A stretch of 64,000 nt of DNA from an uncultured Candidatus Saccharibacteria bacterium (GCA_964453405.1 CAYVOF010000003.1:4286-68285), one strand, 5' to 3'. Positions 5,586 to 15,202 are shown, counted from the stretch's first letter. Program-made: numbers and translations. The notes: generated by a model not told the origin, from the letters alone.

Positions 5586-5640
5586 TATTCCTCCTGTAAG
5601 ACTAATTATTCTAACCTAAATTAGTCTGGTTAGCAATACA

Positions 5641-5670
5641 AAAACACCTCAAAATAATTGAGGTGTTTTT
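5641..5670. terminator. perfect inverted-repeat terminator downstream of tRNA-Tyr (minus strand)
   Basis: AAAACACCTC-aaaataatt-GAGGTGTTTTT. Confidence 0.5.
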
Positions 5671-5672
5671 GC

Positions 5673-6397: not shown

Positions 6398-7072
6398 GTG
6401 ATTAAATATATGCAGAGATACAATCAAGAAACCAAACAAGAAAGTTTTCAATTGCGAAAGAAGGGTTATTCCATAATGGCCATTTCCAAAGAATTAGGGA
6501 TTGCTAAGAGTACAGCCTCGTTATGGGTTAGAAATGTTAAGCTTGACACTGAAGCTATTACGACGTTATCAAAAAATCAAAAGATAGGAAGACAAAAAGG
6601 AATCAATTCAAGACAACTTAGACTGTCCAGAGCATATAATTCTATCCAAAATATTGTTACAAATGATTTGAGTAATAAAGATTTGGACATTTTGACTAAG
6701 AGGTTACTCTGCTCATTCTTATATTGGTGCGAAGGGTCAAAAGCCAGAAGTGAGTTAAGGATAACCAACTCTGATCCAAAACTAATAACTGTATTCTTGA
6801 GATTATTCAGAGAGTCATTTTACTTGGATGAAAGTAAATTTGCTGCAACACTTCACCTGCATGAATACCATGATAAAAATGAAAGGTTGCTTTTTTGGTC
6901 AAACCTCACTAAAATACCTAAGAATCGTATAGGAATTTATAATAAGCCAAATACTGGGAAACGCAAGAAAAAAGACTACCCAGGGTGTATTGCAATTCAT
7001 TATTATGATGTAAAGATGTATGATATTTTAACTGCTTATTATACAAAGTTTTATGAAAATATGGGGGCGTAG
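6398..7072 (+). CDS. HTH-domain protein of unknown function (224 aa)
   Basis: N-terminal resolvase/transposase-like HTH (KKGYSIMAISKELGIAKSTASLWVRN). The last 10 nt overlap the 5' end of tRNA-Trp. It sits at the proximal edge of the cassette array. Confidence 0.5.
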   Translation: MIKYMQRYNQETKQESFQLRKKGYSIMAISKELGIAKSTASLWVRNVKLDTEAITTLSKNQKIGRQKGINSRQLRLSRAYNSIQNIVTNDLSNKDLDILTKRLLCSFLYWCEGSKARSELRITNSDPKLITVFLRLFRESFYLDESKFAATLHLHEYHDKNERLLFWSNLTKIPKNRIGIYNKPNTGKRKKKDYPGCIAIHYYDVKMYDILTAYYTKFYENMGA

Positions 7073-7136
7073 TGTATCGGTCGCACAAATCTCTCCAAAA
7101 GATTTAGGTCGGGTTCAATTCCTGACGCCCCTGCCA
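7063..7136 (+). tRNA. tRNA-Trp (anticodon CCA)
   Basis: Acceptor GGGGGCG/CGCCCCT, anticodon stem AATCT/AGATT, loop C-T-CCA-A-A, T-arm TCGGG-TTCAATT-CCTGA, CCA encoded. Followed by its own terminator hairpin. Confidence 0.85.
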
Positions 7137-7195
7137 CAAGAATCACCGCATAATTGTGCGGTGTTTTTGTATAGGGCAAGTGGAGGTTAGAACTA
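7110..7195 (+). repeat. array repeat R0 (founder copy: tRNA-Trp 3' half + terminator + inverted arm)
   Basis: GGTTCAATTCCTGACGCCCCTGCCA, then CACCGCATAATTGTGCGGTG-TTTTTGT, then ATAGGGCAAGTGGAGGTTAGAACT. Confidence 0.8.
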
Positions 7196-7260
7196 AGTGA
7201 CACAACCAAAATAAAAAAGCTACCGACTTTGATCAGTAGCTTTCACAAAAAGATATCACT

Positions 7261-7833
7261 TTACAGAGAGTAAAAGAAGTAAAGAACTTCTTTAGAAAAC
7301 TTTGTTGGCGGACCATTATGCCATACGTACAATTCTGTCCCAGCGAAGGTAAAACCTTTTCGAAGAAAAAGTTTGCACGCGGAATGTTTAGTTGTATCCA
7401 TTTCTACCCTTATACCATCGCAGTTAGGTTCTTCATTAGCGATTCGTATTAACTCGTCGATAAGAGCATCGGAACAACCTTTGCCTCTAGCTTCGCTAGC
7501 AATAAGGATTCCCCAAACAATCATCACCTTAGTCATTTTTCTCTGTTTCCAAGAGGCGAGCACCCAACCCAGTGGTTTGTCATCTGAACAAACGACTAAA
7601 GCGATATACTCAGGATTATTGATATTAGGAAGAACTTCTTCTGTAATACCTTTGTAGTGGGTAGACTCGATAGTTACTGGTTCAGATAGCTCAACTTCAC
7701 TTAGATCTAGAGTGCTACCATTTAAAGCTAGGGAAAACATTTTGGTGCTAGCTCCAGTATAATTAAGTTTTTGAAGTTCGATACAATCCTGCTCAGTTGC
7801 TTTCCTTACACTGATATTTTTAGAATCATTCAT
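7261..7833 (-). CDS. GNAT family N-acetyltransferase (cassette 1)
   Basis: GNAT core (ALVVCSDDKPLGWVLASW...IASEARGKGCSDALIDELIRIA). GGAGG RBS upstream. Confidence 0.75.
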   Translation of the reverse strand: MNDSKNISVRKATEQDCIELQKLNYTGASTKMFSLALNGSTLDLSEVELSEPVTIESTHYKGITEEVLPNINNPEYIALVVCSDDKPLGWVLASWKQRKMTKVMIVWGILIASEARGKGCSDALIDELIRIANEEPNCDGIRVEMDTTKHSACKLFLRKGFTFAGTELYVWHNGPPTKFSKEVLYFFYSL

Positions 7834-7972
7834 TATTATTTCCTCCAGAAATAAGATTTATATGATATTTCATTATACTATATATTATTAGTTATGTCAA
7901 GTTAGTTTGCATGCGCTCACTTACAGTAATTATAAACTACTTCTAAGTTTTATAATCCAACTTAGTGCAAAT

Positions 7973-8060
7973 AGTTCTAACATCCTCCACCACGCACTGC
8001 CAGCAAAAGCGTCGCATATCTGTGCGGTGTTTTTGTATGGGGCAAGTGTAGGTTAGAACT
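7973..8060 (+). repeat. array repeat R1 (full: left arm + terminator + right arm)
   Basis: AGTTCTAACATCCTCCACCACGCACTGCCAGCAAAAGCGTCGCATATCTGTGCGGTGTTTTTGTATGGGGCAAGTGTAGGTTAGAACT. Confidence 0.85.
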
Positions 8061-8093
8061 GCCGTGGTATAATACAATCAATTAAGAATACAT

Positions 8094-8708
8094 ATGAATA
8101 AAATATTATTATCTATTTCAATTGTTCTTTTCTTGGCAGTAGGTTGCAATCAATCACAACCAAATTCTATTACAAATCCATCTACACAAGATGCAATAGT
8201 GAAAACATCTAATTGGTTGATTTATGGCGATATAAAAATGGGGTATCAGATTAAATATCCTACTGAATTAGTTGCCAGACGTGTTGGTGGAGCATATACA
8301 GGAACCGCAAATAAGGTCCTAAAGGATGATGTGGTCTTTTCCCTATCTTCAGATTGGGCAAAACAGGATGCTATAAGTGAATCCGATACGAAAAGGTGTG
8401 GCAATGACTTTTGTACAGCAACACCGTTTACTCCCATGGGATTGTATCTGAATGTATTCAACAATAGCTCAGTAGGGGGAGGTTACGACGAAGCTGCATC
8501 CCTTTACGCAGCACATAAAGATATTATCAAGGGCTATTTATCGGAATGCACAGCCAATTCAGGGATTGTTCCCCAAGACAAAGCACCTGCAAGTATTTAC
8601 ATAAAACAGATTGAGCCTTCCAAATTCGTTATGGTATGCGCAACCCAAGGCTATGAATCACAAGCCCAGGCAATGTTAAGCACTTTCAATTTTACCAATG
8701 GTTTATAA
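8094..8708 (+). CDS. lipoprotein (cassette 2)
   Basis: Signal peptide with lipobox LAVGC (MNKILLSISIVLFLAVGCNQS). Confidence 0.6.
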   Translation: MNKILLSISIVLFLAVGCNQSQPNSITNPSTQDAIVKTSNWLIYGDIKMGYQIKYPTELVARRVGGAYTGTANKVLKDDVVFSLSSDWAKQDAISESDTKRCGNDFCTATPFTPMGLYLNVFNNSSVGGGYDEAASLYAAHKDIIKGYLSECTANSGIVPQDKAPASIYIKQIEPSKFVMVCATQGYESQAQAMLSTFNFTNGL

Positions 8709-8767
8709 CTTTCATATAAGACAATTCAATTTGCTGGCTCATGAACACACAATTGGCCAATAATGTA

Positions 8768-8833
8768 AGTCCTAACATCCTCCACCACGCCCTGCCACAA
8801 AAGCACCGCATAATTGTGCGGTGTTTTTGTTTT
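8768..8833 (+). repeat. array repeat R2 (left arm + terminator, no right arm)
   Basis: AGTCCTAACATCCTCCACCACGCCCTGCCACAAAAGCACCGCATAATTGTGCGGTGTTTTTGTTTT. Confidence 0.8.
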
Positions 8834-8866
8834 AATAAAAAAAGGGAAGAGTTGCTTCCCATAATA

Positions 8867-9361
8867 TTATCCCCAAATTTTGACATAGATTTTCTTACCC
8901 GAAAAATTATCTTCCTGGTCTTTTTGTTCAAATTGGGTGCCGCAATTTTCGCATTTGTAAAACCCCCAACCTTTATCGTCATGCCCCCAGAGCTTTTGCC
9001 TCTTTTGCTTACATACAGGGCAATCGACACAGTACCAATTTTTTCGGTTTGACTCCGCCTGATGCATTCTCGATAGCAACAGTTCACCGCGTCCAGTCAG
9101 GGAATTCAACTCATACGACTTCATTGCTGTTAGTAACTCAATTAAAGAGCCACTTTCCCCACAATCTGTAACAAATTTGTTTTTTGCGATATCAATATGA
9201 ATGTTACACCCAAACATTTTACAATCTGTGATGACACACCTACCGTGCCAATTCCCGTCCTTGCCCGAATGGCCGTAGGTGTCGAACTCGAATGGTGTTC
9301 TAGTATCAGTAAGCTTTGATTTTGCTGTATCCATTTCGTCCTCCTCATTGAATTTGTCCAT
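8867..9361 (-). CDS. Cys-rich zinc-ribbon protein (cassette 3)
   Basis: Several CxxC pairs (CVDCPVCKQ, CENCGTQ). Start chosen at MDKFNEEDEM; the longer track ORF runs into repeat R3. Confidence 0.5.
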   Translation of the reverse strand: MDKFNEEDEMDTAKSKLTDTRTPFEFDTYGHSGKDGNWHGRCVITDCKMFGCNIHIDIAKNKFVTDCGESGSLIELLTAMKSYELNSLTGRGELLLSRMHQAESNRKNWYCVDCPVCKQKRQKLWGHDDKGWGFYKCENCGTQFEQKDQEDNFSGKKIYVKIWG

Positions 9362-9407
9362 AAATATATCATAGGTCTCAAATATTGACAACTTGCATTT
9401 GTATAAT

Positions 9408-9495
9408 AGTTCTAACATCCTCCACCACGCCCTGCCAGCAAAAGCACCGCATATTTGTGCGGTGTTTTTGTTTGAGGGCAGACAGGAATTGAACT
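9408..9495 (+). repeat. array repeat R3 (full, alternative right arm)
   Basis: The left arm and terminator are as in R1. The right arm GAGGGCAGACAGGAATTGAACT is an inverted copy of a tRNA-Trp-like T-arm/3' end (GTTCAATTCCTG...). Confidence 0.85.
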
Positions 9496-9498
9496 GCT

Positions 9499-10476
9499 GT
9501 GGTATTATTTAATAAAGAATTTAACATTGTGTATATGACTGAAAGAACAAACAATATCAATTTAGAAAACATCGGTATCAACAAAGAGAAAAAGGATATC
9601 CAGTCTGAAAAGCCCATCTTTATAATTTATCGAGAGAATGATCTCTATCGAGATTTTGTACCCAAGCTAGTAAAAAAATTAGAAGAGATGGGTAAAAAAG
9701 TAGAGGTAGAATCCTTCAATCGTGACCAAAATATAGATGAGATTGAACAAAAAGGTTCTGTACTTCTACCCCGCGAAAAGCGAAATGAAATAGCTCTAAA
9801 TACTACAGTCATTATGGATAATACTTCCGCAGAGGCGGTAGGCATGTGGCAACGTCAAGATATAAATCTTGATGACTTAGTAAATCAAATTTACTCCGAT
9901 GTATATTTAGGAAAAGAATTTAACGAACCAAGTCAACTTGAAAATAAAGAAAGTACTTCCTATTCCGAACTGCTAAACATTTTAGGTGGACTTATAGAAG
10001 AAGTGCGAAAAAACTACCCTAATTTAAATACTATAGCCTTAATAAATAATTCATTTGATGTACACGATAAGATTAAGAATACAGACGCAGAGTTACTTGA
10101 TGGGCTAGAAAATAATTTAGAGGCTTTCAACAATTGGGAACGGATGAATACAGAGAGGAAAGGTGCACATGCAGAAAGTCGAGAAATGCGGATATTAATA
10201 AATAGATTGAGTAAACTTATACCAACCGAAAATATTATTGTTTATGACCAGATTACAGATTTTGACAATGACGGACATACTCTAGTTATAGTAGATAGGC
10301 ATCATGTATCTGATGAGGCAAGACTTGAAAAAGCAGGGAAATACCGAATTATTCTTCCGATAGCTAGCGCTATGGAAGATATGGCAAAAAGTGGGCTTTT
10401 GAATCTACCCGAAGAAAAAATTGACCAAAAGCTTTCAGAATTTTTAGAAAGTAAATTTGGGAGTAATGGTCAGTAG
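9499..10476 (+). CDS. hypothetical protein (cassette 4)
   Basis: Intact 325-codon ORF. The start is uncertain: GTG at 9499 or ATG at 9535 (MTERTNNINLENIG). Acidic, no family recognised. Confidence 0.5.
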   Translation: MVLFNKEFNIVYMTERTNNINLENIGINKEKKDIQSEKPIFIIYRENDLYRDFVPKLVKKLEEMGKKVEVESFNRDQNIDEIEQKGSVLLPREKRNEIALNTTVIMDNTSAEAVGMWQRQDINLDDLVNQIYSDVYLGKEFNEPSQLENKESTSYSELLNILGGLIEEVRKNYPNLNTIALINNSFDVHDKIKNTDAELLDGLENNLEAFNNWERMNTERKGAHAESREMRILINRLSKLIPTENIIVYDQITDFDNDGHTLVIVDRHHVSDEARLEKAGKYRIILPIASAMEDMAKSGLLNLPEEKIDQKLSEFLESKFGSNGQ

Positions 10477-10500
10477 CTTGGGCTGCTATACGGTTAATTG

Positions 10501-10566
10501 AGTTCTAACATCATCCACTACGCCCTGCCACAGAGACACTCAACGAAAGTTGGGTGTTTTTGTTTA
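10501..10566 (+). repeat. array repeat R4 (left arm + substituted terminator)
   Basis: AGTTCTAACATCATCCACTACGCCCTGCCA, then a different hairpin CACTCAAC-GAAA-GTTGGGTG, then TTTTTGTTT. Confidence 0.8.
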
Positions 10567-10659
10567 TATGATCGTAAGCTATTGACTCCTACCCGATTTA
10601 TTTGTATAATATTTAGTCTTTAAAATAGACGGAAATCAAAGTTTTTTAGGAGGATATTT

Positions 10660-11805
10660 ATGAAAGAAGCAGTTGCTCCAAAGCGACCAGTCGTGAGGGA
10701 GTTTGAAGTAGAGATAACGCAACTTAACTGGCGTAGTCGCGTTCAGGAAAAAGTTGTTCCGGAAGTTATACCAGACGATATGTTTTACGAAACATCTGAT
10801 CTGGTTAATAAGTTATATCCGGGTAAAGAAATAGTTCATCTGGAACACCCTACAGTTTTTGGTCAACACAATGAAGGTAAGGGAACTTACAGCCTGTTTT
10901 TTAAAACACTGCAGATGTGCTTCAATAAGCACTTTCCATTTGCTTTTAAACCAGAAGCGTTGTGGTACTTAATAGTTCATGAAGTTGCTCAAGCAGTTCT
11001 TCTTAATCCGGAACGTTATCGTTTGTATTTCAGTAATTCAGACGAGCGTCAGGAGATCAAGCTCGATGTTGAATTAGGTCAAGGTGCGAAGATTGAAAAT
11101 TGGGGACCTCATATAATTCAACTTTCAAAATTATTGAAAGAGCAAATTCCTTCTGGTATTGGAGATTTGTTTGCAACTCAGTTTTCAACTTCAACTCCGG
11201 TCAGTGATTCGGCTATGGCTATTACACTGATGCAATCCGCAAGCCCGTTTTACGATTATCGTATGCGTTTATGTTGTGGACTTCCTTTGCTTCGTCTTGA
11301 TGGTCAATCAGGTGACTATGCAGTTTTAGTTGAAAGCGCTAAAGCGCTTAAAACAATCTTTAAGAAAGATCTTGGGTTGTATTTTGATCATCTTATTCCT
11401 GTTCTGGAAAAAATTGCTGATCAAGCGTCGGGTGCGCCAATCGATCATGAGTTTTGGGGATCGTTGTATAATCTGGACAGTGGTTCCGGAGGAAGTAATG
11501 GTTCGGATGGTCTTGGCGGTTGGATGGCATCGTTCATTAATTACTTGCGAGTAGTAAAAGGGAATTTGAATGAAGAGCCTCAAGCTGTAATGCAGGCTAA
11601 GCGTCTTGAGTATTATGATTGGAAAGATAACGACAAGAATCGTATTTCCATAGGTCAAGTTCCTAATCATGTGTCGTCAGTGGACTTTATTTTAGATGAC
11701 TACGGTAAAGAAACTCCAATGCGCTTTATCGGGGGAATGTTATCCGCAGAGGTCATCGATGGGTTTGTTACTCCAGGACTCTCTTATGGAGTTTTGGTAG
11801 ATTAA
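10660..11805 (+). CDS. hypothetical protein (cassette 5, 381 aa)
   Basis: Strong AGGAGG RBS. Gly/Ser-rich internal linker. Its own terminator hairpin lies at 11828-11860 (ATCCTTGG...CCAAGGATTTTTTT). Confidence 0.6.
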   Translation: MKEAVAPKRPVVREFEVEITQLNWRSRVQEKVVPEVIPDDMFYETSDLVNKLYPGKEIVHLEHPTVFGQHNEGKGTYSLFFKTLQMCFNKHFPFAFKPEALWYLIVHEVAQAVLLNPERYRLYFSNSDERQEIKLDVELGQGAKIENWGPHIIQLSKLLKEQIPSGIGDLFATQFSTSTPVSDSAMAITLMQSASPFYDYRMRLCCGLPLLRLDGQSGDYAVLVESAKALKTIFKKDLGLYFDHLIPVLEKIADQASGAPIDHEFWGSLYNLDSGSGGSNGSDGLGGWMASFINYLRVVKGNLNEEPQAVMQAKRLEYYDWKDNDKNRISIGQVPNHVSSVDFILDDYGKETPMRFIGGMLSAEVIDGFVTPGLSYGVLVD

Positions 11806-11971
11806 ACGATCTAAACAACTAGACTTAAATCCTTGGATTTTATCCCAAGGATTTTTTTGTTATTCTTAATACAGAAACCAAGATTTATCACCTCATGAAA
11901 TTATTGGATTTATAAAAAAGTCGATATAAGATGCGATATCAAATATTGTTTATAACGATTTTGGTATAAAT

Positions 11972-12032
11972 AGTTCTAACATCCTCCACCACGCCCTGCC
12001 ACAAAAAAACTCCTTGTAAGGAGTTTTTTTGT
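11972..12032 (+). repeat. array repeat R5 (left arm + substituted terminator)
   Basis: AGTTCTAACATCCTCCACCACGCCCTGCCACAAAAAAACTCCTTGTAAGGAGTTTTTTTGT. Confidence 0.8.
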
Positions 12033-12043
12033 ATAAAATGAAA

Positions 12044-12334
12044 TTATTCTTGACCCGTTTTGATTTCAATGGTTTTGCTTCCCACAGGAGCAGCTTTACA
12101 TCTTCTCATATCAGGAGATCCATACCCATTATCAGGACATATTGTGCCGTTTCTGCAATACCAATCTCCGTGAGGGGAATCGTATTGAGTACACAGGTAT
12201 GAAGGTTCAATATACGCTTTACTATTCAATCCAGCTTTATGAAAAGGTAATCCATATTGTGACCCGTAAATTAGACCTATTACTAAGCCCCCAATCGAGA
12301 GCAGGATACCGTATAAGGCTTCTTTTCTTTTCAT
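12044..12334 (-). CDS. small secreted/membrane Cys-rich protein (cassette 6)
   Basis: N-terminal TM helix, then 5 Cys in 60 residues. 96 aa. Confidence 0.45.
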   Translation of the reverse strand: MKRKEALYGILLSIGGLVIGLIYGSQYGLPFHKAGLNSKAYIEPSYLCTQYDSPHGDWYCRNGTICPDNGYGSPDMRRCKAAPVGSKTIEIKTGQE

Positions 12335-12491
12335 TTTAATGAATTTAATTCTGATAGCTTAATTGTAATTATTATTTTCTTAAATCGCAAGTGGATAACT
12401 TATTTTGTTTTTTATCTTAGTACTAAGCTCATTGCTTATATTCACATTTATCTAAAATCGGATTCTCAAATAAGATTTGATTAGTATAAAT

Positions 12492-12579
12492 AGTTCTAAC
12501 ATCCTTCACCGCGCCCTGCCAGCAAAAGCACCGCATTTTGTGCGGTGTTTTTTGTTTGAGGGCAGACGAGAATCGAACT
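12492..12579 (+). repeat. array repeat R6 (full, alternative right arm)
   Basis: AGTTCTAACATCCTTCACCGCGCCCTGCCAGCAAAAGCACCGCATTTTGTGCGGTGTTTTTTGTTTGAGGGCAGACGAGAATCGAACT. Confidence 0.85.
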
Positions 12580-12597
12580 TTTTGATATAGTTGATTT

Positions 12598-13254
12598 ATG
12601 AAAACAGTTTTAATTACAGGGGTCAGCAGGGGAATTGGGAAAGCTTTGGCTCAAAAGTTTTTAAACGAAGATTACCAGGTAATAGGAACAACTACAGATG
12701 GATTGATAGAATGGCAACACGATAGTTTAAATGTGTTTCCTTTAGATTTATCAAAAGAAGAAAGTATAAAGAGCTGTGCCTCGGAAATTATTAAATTGAA
12801 CAAGCAGATTGATATTCTCATCAATAATGCTGGTATATGGTCTGGTGGTGAAGACGACCCAATGATATATATGGATACTTTTCGTAGGACGATGGAAGTA
12901 AATGTATTTGGCACAGTAGATTTCAGTGAAAGAATTATTCCTATAATGGTAAAGATTGGGCATATTATTAACATCAGCTCGAGAGCTGGCTCAATGTCGT
13001 ATGTGCATGATGCTGAATACCCAGACTACAAGATTTCTAAAGCAGCATTAAATATGGTAAATCGTATGTGGGCAATTAGAATGAAGGACCAAATTATTGT
13101 TTCCTCAGTTCATCCAGGCTGGGTTAAAACGGATATGGGTGGAGATGAGGCTGATATCTATCCAGAAGAGGCAGCTGAGGATATATATAACTTGGCAATA
13201 TCCAAACCTGAAACAGGACAATTTTGGTATAAAGGGCAAAAGTTTAGTTGGTAG
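12598..13254 (+). CDS. short-chain dehydrogenase/reductase (cassette 7)
   Basis: TGVSRGIGKA cofactor motif, NNAG, and catalytic YKISK (YxxxK). Confidence 0.8.
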   Translation: MKTVLITGVSRGIGKALAQKFLNEDYQVIGTTTDGLIEWQHDSLNVFPLDLSKEESIKSCASEIIKLNKQIDILINNAGIWSGGEDDPMIYMDTFRRTMEVNVFGTVDFSERIIPIMVKIGHIINISSRAGSMSYVHDAEYPDYKISKAALNMVNRMWAIRMKDQIIVSSVHPGWVKTDMGGDEADIYPEEAAEDIYNLAISKPETGQFWYKGQKFSW

Positions 13255-13263
13255 TTTGTAGAG

Positions 13264-13351
13264 TAGTTCTAACATCCTTCACTACCCCTGCCAGCAAAAG
13301 CACCGCATATTTGTGCGGTGTTTTTGTGTGGGGCAAGTGGAGGTTAGAACT
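13264..13351 (+). repeat. array repeat R7 (full)
   Basis: AGTTCTAACATCCTTCACTACCCCTGCCAGCAAAAGCACCGCATATTTGTGCGGTGTTTTTGTGTGGGGCAAGTGGAGGTTAGAACT. Confidence 0.85.
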
Positions 13352-13416
13352 GTATCTAATTTTTGACGTCAGTTTAAAAATCATATATTATGAACTTAAG
13401 ATAATCATAAATTTGT

Positions 13417-13629
13417 ATGTCTACAAAAACTTTAGAAAAAATGGTAAAAAATCTCTCTTCCGAAGTAGCCACTCTACGCTCTTTGGTGATTAGTGTTGTC
13501 CGAGAAGAGAAAGACCCAGAAGGAGAATACCGTTCTAAGTTTGTTAAAGACATTCTGAAAGCAGTAAAAGAACCTGTCGTATATGAGTTTAAAGGAAGTA
13601 AGGATTTTCTAAAACTAATTCGTAAGTAA
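13417..13629 (+). CDS. putative antitoxin (cassette 8, gene 1)
   Basis: 70-aa ORF ending 2 nt before the RelE/ParE-like toxin gene. Family not recognisable. Confidence 0.5.
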   Translation: MSTKTLEKMVKNLSSEVATLRSLVISVVREEKDPEGEYRSKFVKDILKAVKEPVVYEFKGSKDFLKLIRK

Positions 13630-13631
13630 TA

Positions 13632-13895
13632 ATGCGAGTAGTTTACACTGAAAAGTTTTTAGCTCAAGCAAAAGAACTTCCTAAAGAAACACAAACTAAA
13701 CTAGCAAGACTATTAGGATTATTAGCAGTAAATCCATTTAATCCTTTATTGCACAGCAAGCGACTCACTGGTAAACTTTCTCAAGAATATTCATTTAGAA
13801 TAACTAGGGATTGGCGAGTCATCTTTATATTCATTTCCAAGGATACCATCAAACTAATTATGGCTCGGCATCGTAAAGACGTTTATCGAAAATAG
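13632..13895 (+). CDS. type II toxin, RelE/ParE (YafQ-like) family (cassette 8, gene 2)
   Basis: Typical C-terminal signature: ...SQEYSFRITRDWRVIFIFI...IKLIMARHRKDVYRK. 87 aa. Confidence 0.7.
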   Translation: MRVVYTEKFLAQAKELPKETQTKLARLLGLLAVNPFNPLLHSKRLTGKLSQEYSFRITRDWRVIFIFISKDTIKLIMARHRKDVYRK

Positions 13896-13981
13896 TTCTA
13901 ACATCCTCTACTACGCCCTGCCAGCAAAAGCATCGCATATTTGTGCGGTGTTTTTGTATGGGGCAAGTGTAGGTTAGAACT
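13894..13981 (+). repeat. array repeat R8 (full, last copy)
   Basis: AGTTCTAACATCCTCTACTACGCCCTGCCAGCAAAAGCATCGCATATTTGTGCGGTGTTTTTGTATGGGGCAAGTGTAGGTTAGAACT. Confidence 0.85.
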
Positions 13982-13997
13982 GGTGTATAACAAATCT

Positions 13998-14711
13998 ATG
14001 AATAGTGAAATAGAAAAACTGATTGAACAGGGTGAGATTGCCCGAGAACAAGATGATTTTCAAACTGCGTTAGTGAGTTTTGATAATGCTATGATTGAAT
14101 CGCTCAAAATTAATGACTATGCTTTAGCGGTTAACGCATTAGGGCATCATTTGCTAGTTTACGATAGATTATATAAACAGACGCAAAATCCTTCGTTTTT
14201 GGAGATGATGTTTATGGACACTCAAACAGGGTTGCGATTGGCAGAAAAAAATAATTTGCACGGACAACCCTTGGCGTTAATGACGATGCGTAGCGCAGAA
14301 TATTATTTGGACACCAAGGATTTTGTGCAAGCCGAACAGCTTTTTCAAAAGGCTTTTGATGAACTAACCCAAGACCAAAATGTTACTAACGAAGAACGGG
14401 CAGAATATTTAGGTCACTTAGCCGAAGCCGTGATCTATCAAGGGGATGTTAATCGATCGAAATCAATTTTTATGAAAGCACATCATTTACTTGAGCAGCA
14501 CTCAAATAAATTAAGAGACTTTCATAAACTAGTTATTCAAAGTGGGTTACTTATGAGAGAAGTTTACGGCTTATATTTAAATCATAAGGTTATTGAAGCT
14601 AAAGAATTAATAAAACAAATCGAACCGTTAGCGGTTAAGTTAAAAAATGAGCATAATATGGACGCGAGATATAATCAGTGGGTTGAGCTTAATGCTAAAT
14701 TGAATTCTTAA
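13998..14711 (+). CDS. TPR-like all-helical protein (distal cassette)
   Basis: Start at MNSEIEKLIEQ; the track's 13941 start lies inside repeat R8. Helical-repeat composition. Confidence 0.55.
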   Translation: MNSEIEKLIEQGEIAREQDDFQTALVSFDNAMIESLKINDYALAVNALGHHLLVYDRLYKQTQNPSFLEMMFMDTQTGLRLAEKNNLHGQPLALMTMRSAEYYLDTKDFVQAEQLFQKAFDELTQDQNVTNEERAEYLGHLAEAVIYQGDVNRSKSIFMKAHHLLEQHSNKLRDFHKLVIQSGLLMREVYGLYLNHKVIEAKELIKQIEPLAVKLKNEHNMDARYNQWVELNAKLNS

Positions 14712-14809
14712 AAATTATTTGATGCAAAATACAATTGACCAAACAGTTTGTAAAAGAGAACTAGGAATCACCTATATCTATATTCCCAATACATAGGTAT
14801 AATAGGTAT

Positions 14810-15202
14810 ATGTCAGCTTTTGAAAAGGAAAAAATCTTTGTTGAGTTAAGAAAGTACCATTTGGAAGAATTCCCAAAACCTCTGGCAACTGAGCAAATGA
14901 CTACTCTTTTAACTGAATATAAAGAAATCGAAGACGCTATTGTCAGCATGATTTTTGGCTTGGTTAATGGTAAGACGGAATTTGTAGATTTTAGGACTCA
15001 ACTTAAAGATTTTAATAAAAAAGTAAAACCTGGATTAACTACAGACAAAGCTGAGACTTCAAATCGTGAACTATTTCTTTCCAAATCTTTTCAACTTTCA
15101 AATATTCTAGATATTGCTTCTGGAGGAAACTTTAAGCTCCGACCGATTCGTAAACCAAAAATTATTCGCAGCACTAATCCCCGCGAAGTCATAGAAAATT
15201 AA
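14810..15202 (+). CDS. hypothetical protein (130 aa)
   Basis: Intact ORF with a TATAAT-like box upstream. No family recognised. Confidence 0.45.
   Translation: MSAFEKEKIFVELRKYHLEEFPKPLATEQMTTLLTEYKEIEDAIVSMIFGLVNGKTEFVDFRTQLKDFNKKVKPGLTTDKAETSNRELFLSKSFQLSNILDIASGGNFKLRPIRKPKIIRSTNPREVIEN

Follow-up and report, generated by a model that had tools for sequence, protein, structure and literature searches.

The stretch analyzed here, 64,000 nt of one strand from an uncultured Candidatus Saccharibacteria bacterium (GCA_964453405.1, CAYVOF010000003.1:4286-68285; the whole stretch is referred to below as the window), carries a tRNA-Trp gene followed by nine junction repeats (7108-13981) that delimit nine compact gene units. 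A complete junction comprises a left module (L), a bidirectional terminator, and an inverted right module (R), which occurs as type a or type b. A preliminary description of the window had placed nine repeats at these positions, the first of them on the 3' end of the tRNA gene, and both points were borne out. The anchor, the junctions (R0 to R8), and the right border are as follows.

7063-7136, plus strand: tRNA-Trp with CCA anticodon and encoded CCA end (ARAGORN; Rfam tRNA, 50.6 bits)
7108-7194, plus strand: junction R0; the left arm is the genuine tRNA-Trp 3' end and the spacer starts at 7137; bidirectional terminator 7144-7163 plus T-run; R type a 7173-7194, ATAGGGCAAGTGGAGGTTAGAACT
7972-8060, plus strand: junction R1; L 7973-8002, terminator 8010-8029, R type a 8039-8060; DNA fold z -3.25
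8767-8830, plus strand: junction R2; L 8768-8797, terminator 8804-8823, no R module
9407-9495, plus strand: junction R3; L 9408-9437, terminator 9445-9464, R type b 9471-9495
10500-10563, plus strand: junction R4; L 10501-10530, a differing terminator hairpin, no R module
11971-12034, plus strand: junction R5; L 11972-12001, a third terminator type, no R module
12491-12579, plus strand: junction R6; L 12492-12521, terminator 12529-12547, R type b'
13264-13351, plus strand: junction R7; L with a 1-nt deletion, terminator, R type a; DNA fold z -6.45
13893-13981, plus strand: junction R8; L, terminator, R type a
14760-15202, plus strand: right border, a promoter region (CTATATCTAT...) and a conserved core gene for a 130-residue protein (14810-15202)

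The L module, (T)AGTTCTAACATCCTCCACnnnGCCCTGCCA, imitates tRNA-Trp positions ~52-76 as a diverged form of the gene's final ~25 nt, and it ends in ...GCCC(C)TGCCA like the tRNA. When L was aligned with the tRNA-Trp genes of five genomes, the common positions were GTTC.A...TCC...CCCTGCCA, with a 4-5-nt insertion in the T-loop region of L; CCCTGCCA was invariant, and strict identity between L and the tRNA amounted to ~9-11 nt. Judged from sequence, L is a diverged tRNA-Trp 3' end, because it shares CCCTGCCA, other positions, and the general T-loop/acceptor arrangement with such ends. The last ~11 nt of tRNA-Trp (CGCCCCTGCCA) are common to every L module, and L is the same in all lineages regardless of the resident tRNA-Trp sequence.

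In the terminator, a short spacer rich in A is followed by a G+C-rich hairpin and then a T-run, and the element scores as a terminator in both directions; the hairpins of R0 and R2 are identical. An R module is present in six of the nine junctions, inverted and always ending in GAACT. Type a (R0, R1, R7, and R8) is GGGGCAAGTGGAGGTTAGAACT, an imperfect complement of L, and type b (R3 and R6), GAGGGCAGACAGGAATTGAACT, is complementary to the T-arm and acceptor strand of a tRNA-Trp. The type b module of R3 is the reverse complement of this genome's own tRNA-Trp T-arm and acceptor; the b' variant of R6 is the complement of a TTCGATT-type tRNA-Trp T-arm, as found in a sister genome (locus L003). The repeats had been described as palindromic, which holds for the six junctions with an R module and fails for R2, R4, and R5, where only L and a terminator are present.

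An array-like layout also follows tRNA-Tyr (5600-5672, minus strand), consisting of CCA, GCAAAAA, a hairpin, and TTTTTGT, and then a second inverted repeat containing AGGTTAGAAT. The junction style of the array copies the ordinary tRNA terminators of this genome, though the tRNA-Tyr hairpin sequence differs. Three other roles for the modules were considered and dropped: L as an element of RNA 3' untranslated regions, given that its orientation stays the same where the preceding gene is reversed; L as a DNA uptake sequence, given its occurrence at a single locus; and R as a -35 element or Shine-Dalgarno sequence, for which the spacing is wrong.

The repeat is restricted to the array. The L 30-mer AGTTCTAACATCCTCCACCACGCCCTGCCA gave seven matches at up to 3 mismatches, against 0.00 expected from shuffled sequences, all on the plus strand and within 7973-13923, with R7 holding an eighth copy that bears the 1-nt deletion. 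The terminator hairpin core CCGCAYANNTGTGCGG occurs at six sites, every one inside the array, against 0.12 expected. Pattern and profile searches found no copy of the junction repeat in the other ~57 kb of the window, which is ordinary core genome (rpsB, tsf, glycosyltransferases, mur genes, secDF, ftsW, and ATP synthase). GC content (0.36-0.38) and GC skew do not change across the array, whose GC content equals that of the surrounding genome. An Rfam scan of the region and of three related loci (L001-L003) returned tRNAs only, with weak GcvB/RNAI-type matches below threshold. Confinement of L to one locus, seen both in the window and in the single pattern match per Saccharibacteria metagenome-assembled genome (MAG), removes the reading as a generic terminator element scattered like repetitive extragenic palindromic (REP) sequences. 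A REP-like element, a bacterial interspersed mosaic element, or a miniature inverted-repeat transposable element was likewise rejected on the zero copies outside the array and on inspection of the R...L units, around which no short target duplications were seen. The locus was also considered as a dif site or replication terminus and rejected, as there is no GC-skew switch. No dif-like 11-6-11 pattern was recognized by eye.

The nine units delimited by the junctions contain the following genes.

7261-7833, minus strand (unit 7215-7900): cassette 1, GNAT acetyltransferase (Pfam Acetyltransf_1, E 1e-9); own consensus promoter 7900-7872 (12/12) and own terminator 7244-7215, both on the minus strand
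8094-8708, plus strand: cassette 2, lipoprotein; signal peptide with LAVGC lipobox, no Pfam match
8867-9334, minus strand (unit 8844-9391): cassette 3, Cys-rich protein with CxxC...CxxC motifs; own terminator 8860-8844 and own promoter 9391-9363, both on the minus strand
9535-10476, plus strand: cassette 4, ORFan of 313 amino acids, no Pfam match
10660-11805, plus strand (unit 10582-11854): cassette 5, DUF4419 protein (Pfam, E 3.9e-47); own promoter 10582-10610, Shine-Dalgarno sequence, and own terminator 11827-11854, on the plus strand
12044-12334, minus strand: cassette 6, small membrane-anchored Cys-rich protein of 96 amino acids (from translation)
12598-13254, plus strand: cassette 7, short-chain dehydrogenase (Pfam adh_short, E 1e-35); ATG 6 nt past a TATAGT box
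13417-13629 and 13632-13895, plus strand (unit 13363-13895): cassette 8, putative antitoxin and RelE/YoeB-like toxin
13998-14711, plus strand: unit 9, TPR-like protein (Pfam TPR_12, E 2e-5, below cut-off); last variable unit, with no L after it

Several units have their own consensus promoters, and the reversed genes, found in three of the nine units, have their own terminators. In several genes, the -10 box lies 6-7 nt ahead of the ATG, an arrangement that looks leaderless in the sequence and the promoter scan. The cassettes are autonomous transcription units, unlike integron cassettes. The toxin of cassette 8 matched Pfam YoeB/HigB/ParE families at E 6e-5 to 3e-3, below the cut-offs; its unit has a promoter at 13363-13391, and the TAG of the L module in R8 serves as the stop codon of the toxin gene. 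The cassette 4 protein matched only itself among 5.8e9 proteins (E <= 1e-5), and a PADLOC scan of all cassette proteins gave no defense-system match.

In outline, the earlier account of a locus-specific array, anchored on tRNA-Trp, of compact and functionally unrelated units with a conserved repeat agrees with these results, and several of its details were revised. A ribosome-binding site had been ascribed to every unit; this is only partly correct, as three or four genes have a Shine-Dalgarno sequence. One of two proteins listed as unknown belongs to DUF4419, and the other, that of cassette 4, remained an ORFan. For the RelE/ParE and TPR assignments, Pfam matches exist but fall below the curated cut-offs. 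The supposed zinc-ribbon gene encodes the Cys-rich CxxC protein of cassette 3 and starts at 9334, not 9418.

Related loci were sought in other genomes. An exact-pattern scan of one genome per species (185,579 genomes) returned three loci: two in Saccharibacteria MAGs, with one match in each, and a third on a 1.8-kb contig that begins inside tRNA-Trp and holds three cassettes. A looser pattern retrieved 19 metagenome loci of 30-48% GC, and L was present in about 20 further Saccharibacteria-like contigs. Wherever both were present, tRNA-Trp lay upstream of L in the same orientation (the window, L003, L007, L008/L017, L009, L020, and L030); L010 has only a weak L match, and L002 begins inside the tRNA. 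Across ~30 distinct junctions on these contigs, L was nearly invariant, the hairpins were of at least a dozen kinds, and R was present in a minority. Three scans of viral collections with L and R patterns gave no matches, and no empty R|L palindrome occurred in any locus searched. At three loci (L001, 1200-1350; L009, 190-283; L030, 490-604), ~100-nt non-coding elements with a tRNA-Trp-like acceptor 3' strand, CCA, and their own terminator are located between the tRNA-Trp terminator and the first cassette. They received no tRNA or Rfam family call and could be degraded tRNA copies or small RNA cassettes.

Comparison with sister genomes revealed that the content of the array varies between constant flanks. 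The window, L003, and L025 share a left flank consisting of a tRNA cluster, rpmG, and tRNA-Trp, and a right flank in which the promoter region and the 130-residue gene of the right border (tblastn and sequences) close the variable region and are followed by a methyltransferase gene. Between these flanks, the window has its nine units, L003 has one cassette and three genes, and L025 has four other genes, all different; the content of L024 and L030 differs again. Such differences in cassettes between shared flanks remove the reading of a static gene content.

A unit carrying HAM1/ITPase was found in L001, L009, and L030 amid unrelated neighbors, with 86% identity over 675 nt between L001 and L009 and 94% over 614 nt between L009 and L030. 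In both comparisons, homology starts at or within R and stops exactly at the CCA of L, past which nothing is shared: the terminator and the next gene differ, and R is either of another kind or missing. In L030, two additional genes separate the tRNA from the HAM1 unit, and the segment following the L of the first gene (1173-1216) resembles the terminator that follows tRNA-Trp in L009; in L020, an identical 26-nt terminator stands behind the tRNA and behind an L; and in the window, the identical hairpins of R0 and R2 are a like case. When read as sequence traces, the HAM1 unit and the duplicated terminators are what insertion at a tRNA-end core would be expected to leave (attL as tRNA plus element, attR as L plus native flank), and the HAM1 pattern is not what an attC unit would predict.

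Two further observations concern these loci. In L030, a gene of 199 amino acids (1319-1935) lies between an L-terminator and the R of the next cassette, with its stop codon within R. Genes can therefore also be placed between terminator and R, a hint that the junction may offer a second insertion point. On a contig from another member of the candidate phyla radiation (CPR; L033, 804-1922), where there are no L modules, a conserved ITPase gene is followed by a gene for a protein with the Shedu (SduA_C) defense domain.

We considered that the array could have grown by accretion of integrase-less cassettes at an att-like core in the tRNA 3' end, with mobilization in trans. This is the explanation we prefer, at a confidence a little short of even. 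Its basis is the anatomy of the junctions, the likeness of L to the tRNA, the restriction to one locus, the conservation of L across lineages, the variable content, the HAM1 unit in three contexts, the tRNA terminators duplicated behind an L, and the precedent of other tandem elements anchored on tRNA genes, from which we infer site-specific recombination, the position of the crossover, and a trans-acting enzyme. A circular or incoming cassette would recombine with the chromosome through the ...CCCTGCCA core that the tRNA and L have in common, with the tRNA itself or an L already in place as the target. The cassette would carry L at its distal end and its own promoter, often near the ATG, and every insertion would recreate a tRNA-like target together with a bidirectional terminator, so that new units could stack up, each transcriptionally insulated by its terminator. 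The R module repeats L (type a) or the tRNA 3' end (type b) in inverted orientation, turns many junctions into long imperfect palindromes, and may be a second binding arm. The putative recombinase would be supplied in trans.

Several results weigh against this explanation. Identity between L and the tRNA is limited to the ~9-11 nt given above, and the sequence past the CCA, where a P' arm would be expected, is A-rich with a variable hairpin. The junctions are mosaic, which a single fixed crossover point does not predict: L002, L003, and L025 share the tRNA terminator and a promoter box and differ in R types and genes. No Phage_integrase-type Pfam match was obtained among the scanned window proteins or the open reading frames (ORFs) flanking the arrays in six loci. 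Searches by tblastn with XerD, IntI1, and resolvase, which were of limited sensitivity, gave nothing credible in 248 kb; the two weak matches lay in an unrelated 93-residue ORF (L013) and ~9 kb from L (L005, E 0.023). The array arrangement was 100% identical in three read sets (SRR8893623, SRR8893622, and ERZ27258510), with no sign of ongoing rearrangement, and no circular form or empty site was seen in the loci searched. The Pfam scans also agree with the earlier statement that the window encodes no tyrosine recombinase. No IntI or other recombinase was found near at least 10 related arrays, and no element-encoded tyrosine integrase at any array locus. Exact-protein look-ups of the short-chain dehydrogenase, GNAT, and RelE proteins returned only contigs identical to the window, and no population variants were seen.

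A wider proposal, to which we give a real though minor chance, is that Saccharibacteria, and perhaps other CPR bacteria, possess a gene-capture platform analogous to the integron and unrelated to it. The tRNA-Trp 3' end would serve as attI, the tRNA mimic formed by L, with or without R, around a bidirectional terminator would serve as attC, the cargo would be self-expressed single genes, and recombination would be performed in trans. The enzyme could belong to the host, for example the cell's own Xer-type recombinase working on single strands that have entered by natural transformation and folded, or it could be a recombinase of a kind not yet recognized.

The main alternative to accretion at an att-like core, to which we assign less weight than to that explanation, though an appreciable one, dispenses with a dedicated recombinase. 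Saccharibacteria are reportedly naturally competent, and DNA taken up by the cell could use the ~60-90-nt junction as homology for RecA-mediated insertion, deletion, and swapping, a circularized fragment integrating by a Campbell-type single crossover. The mosaic junctions, in which one terminator occurs with various R types and tRNA/R(a) and L/R(b) hybrids are found, are better explained in this way than by accretion at an att-like core. The duplication of whole junctions around units, and not merely of the short core, is consistent with it, as are the equal GC content of array and genome and the lack of any recombinase found in the loci screened. However, a mere patch of homology should drift by lineage, whereas L is near-identical at 30% and 48% GC while the terminators are unrelated. 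The conserved block is also sharp-edged, at AGTTC and GAACT, and the loss of homology exactly at CCA in three contexts is site-like.

It is improbable, in our estimation, that the repeat is static, that is, a duplicated tRNA-Trp 3' end and terminator that insulates genes, with growth of the array by ordinary duplication and unrelated insertions. The junction hairpins do score as terminators both ways, tRNA-Tyr has the same order of CCA, A-tract, hairpin, and T-tract, and the arrangement is stable over the three read sets. Left unexplained, however, are the retention of L, rather than the true tRNA end, across distant lineages, the occurrence of L at a single locus, the cassette differences between sister genomes, and the presence of HAM1 between different neighbors.

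The gene just upstream of the array suggested a further possibility. It encodes a helix-turn-helix (HTH) protein with a LAGLIDADG-like domain.

6410-7072, plus strand: HTH and LAGLIDADG-like protein of 220 amino acids, stop codon within the first 10 nt of tRNA-Trp

Pfam HTH_23/HTH_7 matches were below cut-off, and 170 homologues of ~220 amino acids were found in CPR bacteria. In an AlphaFold2 model (pLDDT 95.7), the C-terminal fold appears LAGLIDADG-like, with a single domain. The family has an invariant W..E-G-K motif, and E108 lies in 'YWCEGxK', where the acidic residue of LAGLIDADG proteins would be. Pfam gave no LAGLIDADG match and no family over the C-terminal domain, and Foldseek gave no match. 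In five lineages, the gene follows rpmG and has its stop codon inside the first 10 nt of tRNA-Trp: in the window and at these four loci.

L024, 10001-10669: HTH family gene
L025, 10001-10651: HTH family gene
L026, 4001-4663: HTH family gene
L029, 4001-4672: HTH family gene

According to this possibility, R and L would together make up a palindromic target (...GGTTAGAACT|AGTTCTAACC...), each contributing one half. The HTH-LAGLIDADG protein would cut this target as a dimer, and repair of the break, guided by homology in the R and L arms, would copy in the payload. In every complete unit, the payload does lie exactly between GAACT and AGTTC; the modeled single LAGLIDADG-like domain with its invariant acidic motif and the association of the family with tRNA genes in five lineages would also fit. 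The family occurs at tRNA-Trp without an array in L026 and L029, however, and is missing from the array genomes L003 and L030; the gene is inserted at the tRNA 5' end, suggesting that this end is its own target; and many units lack R, besides the want of an empty R|L palindrome in any locus. We therefore judge a split homing site to be very improbable. The same distribution and the tie to the tRNA 5' end speak against the HTH protein as the local factor for which it had been put forward. It is a neighbor of the array and probably not part of the cassette machinery. Its gene looks like a free-standing one of homing-endonuclease type, with the 5' side of tRNA-Trp as its target, and may make the locus break-prone. 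At L024 (8663-9560), a tRNA-Tyr gene that ARAGORN did not call is immediately preceded by an HTH-family paralogue with 30% identity; the ~200-nt insertion in the anticodon region of this tRNA-Tyr is probably a group I intron.

The window had been described as resembling a cluster of attC sites lacking an integrase (CALIN). In a true integron remnant, L-terminator-R would be attC, and an IntI from a different locus would recombine its folded single strands, crossing over within the GTTAGAA box. The repeat termini, TTCTAAC and GTTAGAA, had been likened to the RYYYAAC and GTTRRRY boxes and match them at 6/7 positions each; the right arm is missing from three of the nine junctions here and from most junctions elsewhere, L staying constant while R changes type or vanishes. 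For complete L-terminator-R junctions, folding predicts an extended, imperfectly paired hairpin with a 2-3-nt bulge (z -3.2 to -6.5), L and R cells are paired at 74.6%, compared with 32-52% for a slid partner, and some stop codons fall inside the repeat. However, L and R do not covary (all measures at or below shuffles), RNAalifold on 12 complete junctions gave no consensus structure, and L pairs poorly with R type b. An attC unit consists of a gene and the attC that follows it, and crossover takes place in R' (G|TT), so that homology would continue through the terminator and the R body; the HAM1 gene moves without the terminator and R downstream of L, and its boundary is at CCA, not at the R' box. 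Integron cassettes are promoterless, co-oriented, and expressed from the cassette promoter Pc; those of the array have their own promoters and mixed orientation. To our knowledge, the definition of an integron makes no provision for a tRNA gene as the anchor of the platform. With no intI in the window proteins or at the related loci screened, an integron remnant is the least probable of the explanations considered, and the locus is not classed as an integron or CALIN, though its layout is integron-like.

The literature searched yielded no description of the array, of L, or of integrons in Saccharibacteria or Patescibacteria. The earlier assertion that such an array had never been described was nevertheless too strong, as tandem tRNA-anchored elements are known: in the tycheposons of Prochlorococcus, they are separated by partial tRNA copies and include integrase-less remnants (bioRxiv 10.1101/2020.12.28.424599). 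The array resembles tycheposons and tRNA islands in its tRNA 3'-end anchor, in the partial-tRNA-like direct repeats between units, with newer units pushing older ones outward, in its diverse, strain-variable cargo, and in the many integrase-less units. It differs in that its units are single genes of 0.5-1.5 kb rather than multi-kb elements, that its repeat is a lineage-independent 30-mer sharing ~9-11 nt with the resident tRNA end and not a true copy of it, that its junctions contain a bidirectional terminator and often an inverted arm, and that no integrase-bearing parent element was found in any locus.

With integrons and CALINs, the array shares a dense succession of compact units, most with one gene and without functional relation to one another (a toxin-antitoxin pair and ORFans are among them), imperfectly palindromic junctions with AAC/GTT-type ends, some stops inside the repeat, and repeat uniformity at the species level. 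Besides the differences already given (self-expressed cassettes in mixed orientation, a dispensable R arm without covariation with L, and an apparent boundary at CCA, not at the R' box), no IntI, attI, or Pc is present here, the array is anchored on a tRNA gene, and the left arm is conserved in sequence, whereas attC is conserved in structure and not in sequence. The pdif modules of Acinetobacter plasmids and integrative mobile elements exploiting Xer, such as CTX phage, with a folded hairpin attP and two inverted half-sites ~90 nt apart, are Xer-dependent. They are alike in having genes without their own recombinase between inverted sites of alternating orientation and a host enzyme acting in trans; inspection of the array showed no recognizable 11-6-11 XerC/XerD layout, and its target is a tRNA end, not dif. 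The minimal mobile elements and intergenic mosaic elements of Neisseria likewise swap whole-gene cassettes between conserved flanks with short repeats at the junctions in a naturally competent organism, but their repeats are genome-wide, whereas here one locus is involved and the repeat imitates a tRNA end. New here are the single-gene units, the lineage-independent tRNA mimic, the terminator-centered and often palindromic junction, the lack of any associated recombinase found, and the host phylum.

The genomes of CPR bacteria are tiny and contain few recognizable mobile elements, and little is understood of the way in which these bacteria acquire accessory genes. A conserved array confined to one locus suggests that a phylum which is uncultivated and depends on hosts has a dedicated path for strain-level gene flux. 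If a recombinase indeed acts in trans on the tRNA mimic, the array would represent a second, independent invention of the integron principle. Saccharibacteria are now transformable, and L may offer a natural landing site for genetic tools. The 30-nt L signature is directly searchable, which would permit mining of metagenome cassettes, many of them ORFans, and a search for the enzyme by co-occurrence. Two Logan contigs (SRR8893622 and SRR8893623) break within junction repeats, and arrays are probably under-represented in MAGs because such repeats fragment short-read assemblies. Short public contigs identical to the window at 7014-8050, 12202-13315, and 13480-14228 showed the same strain and arrangement recurring.

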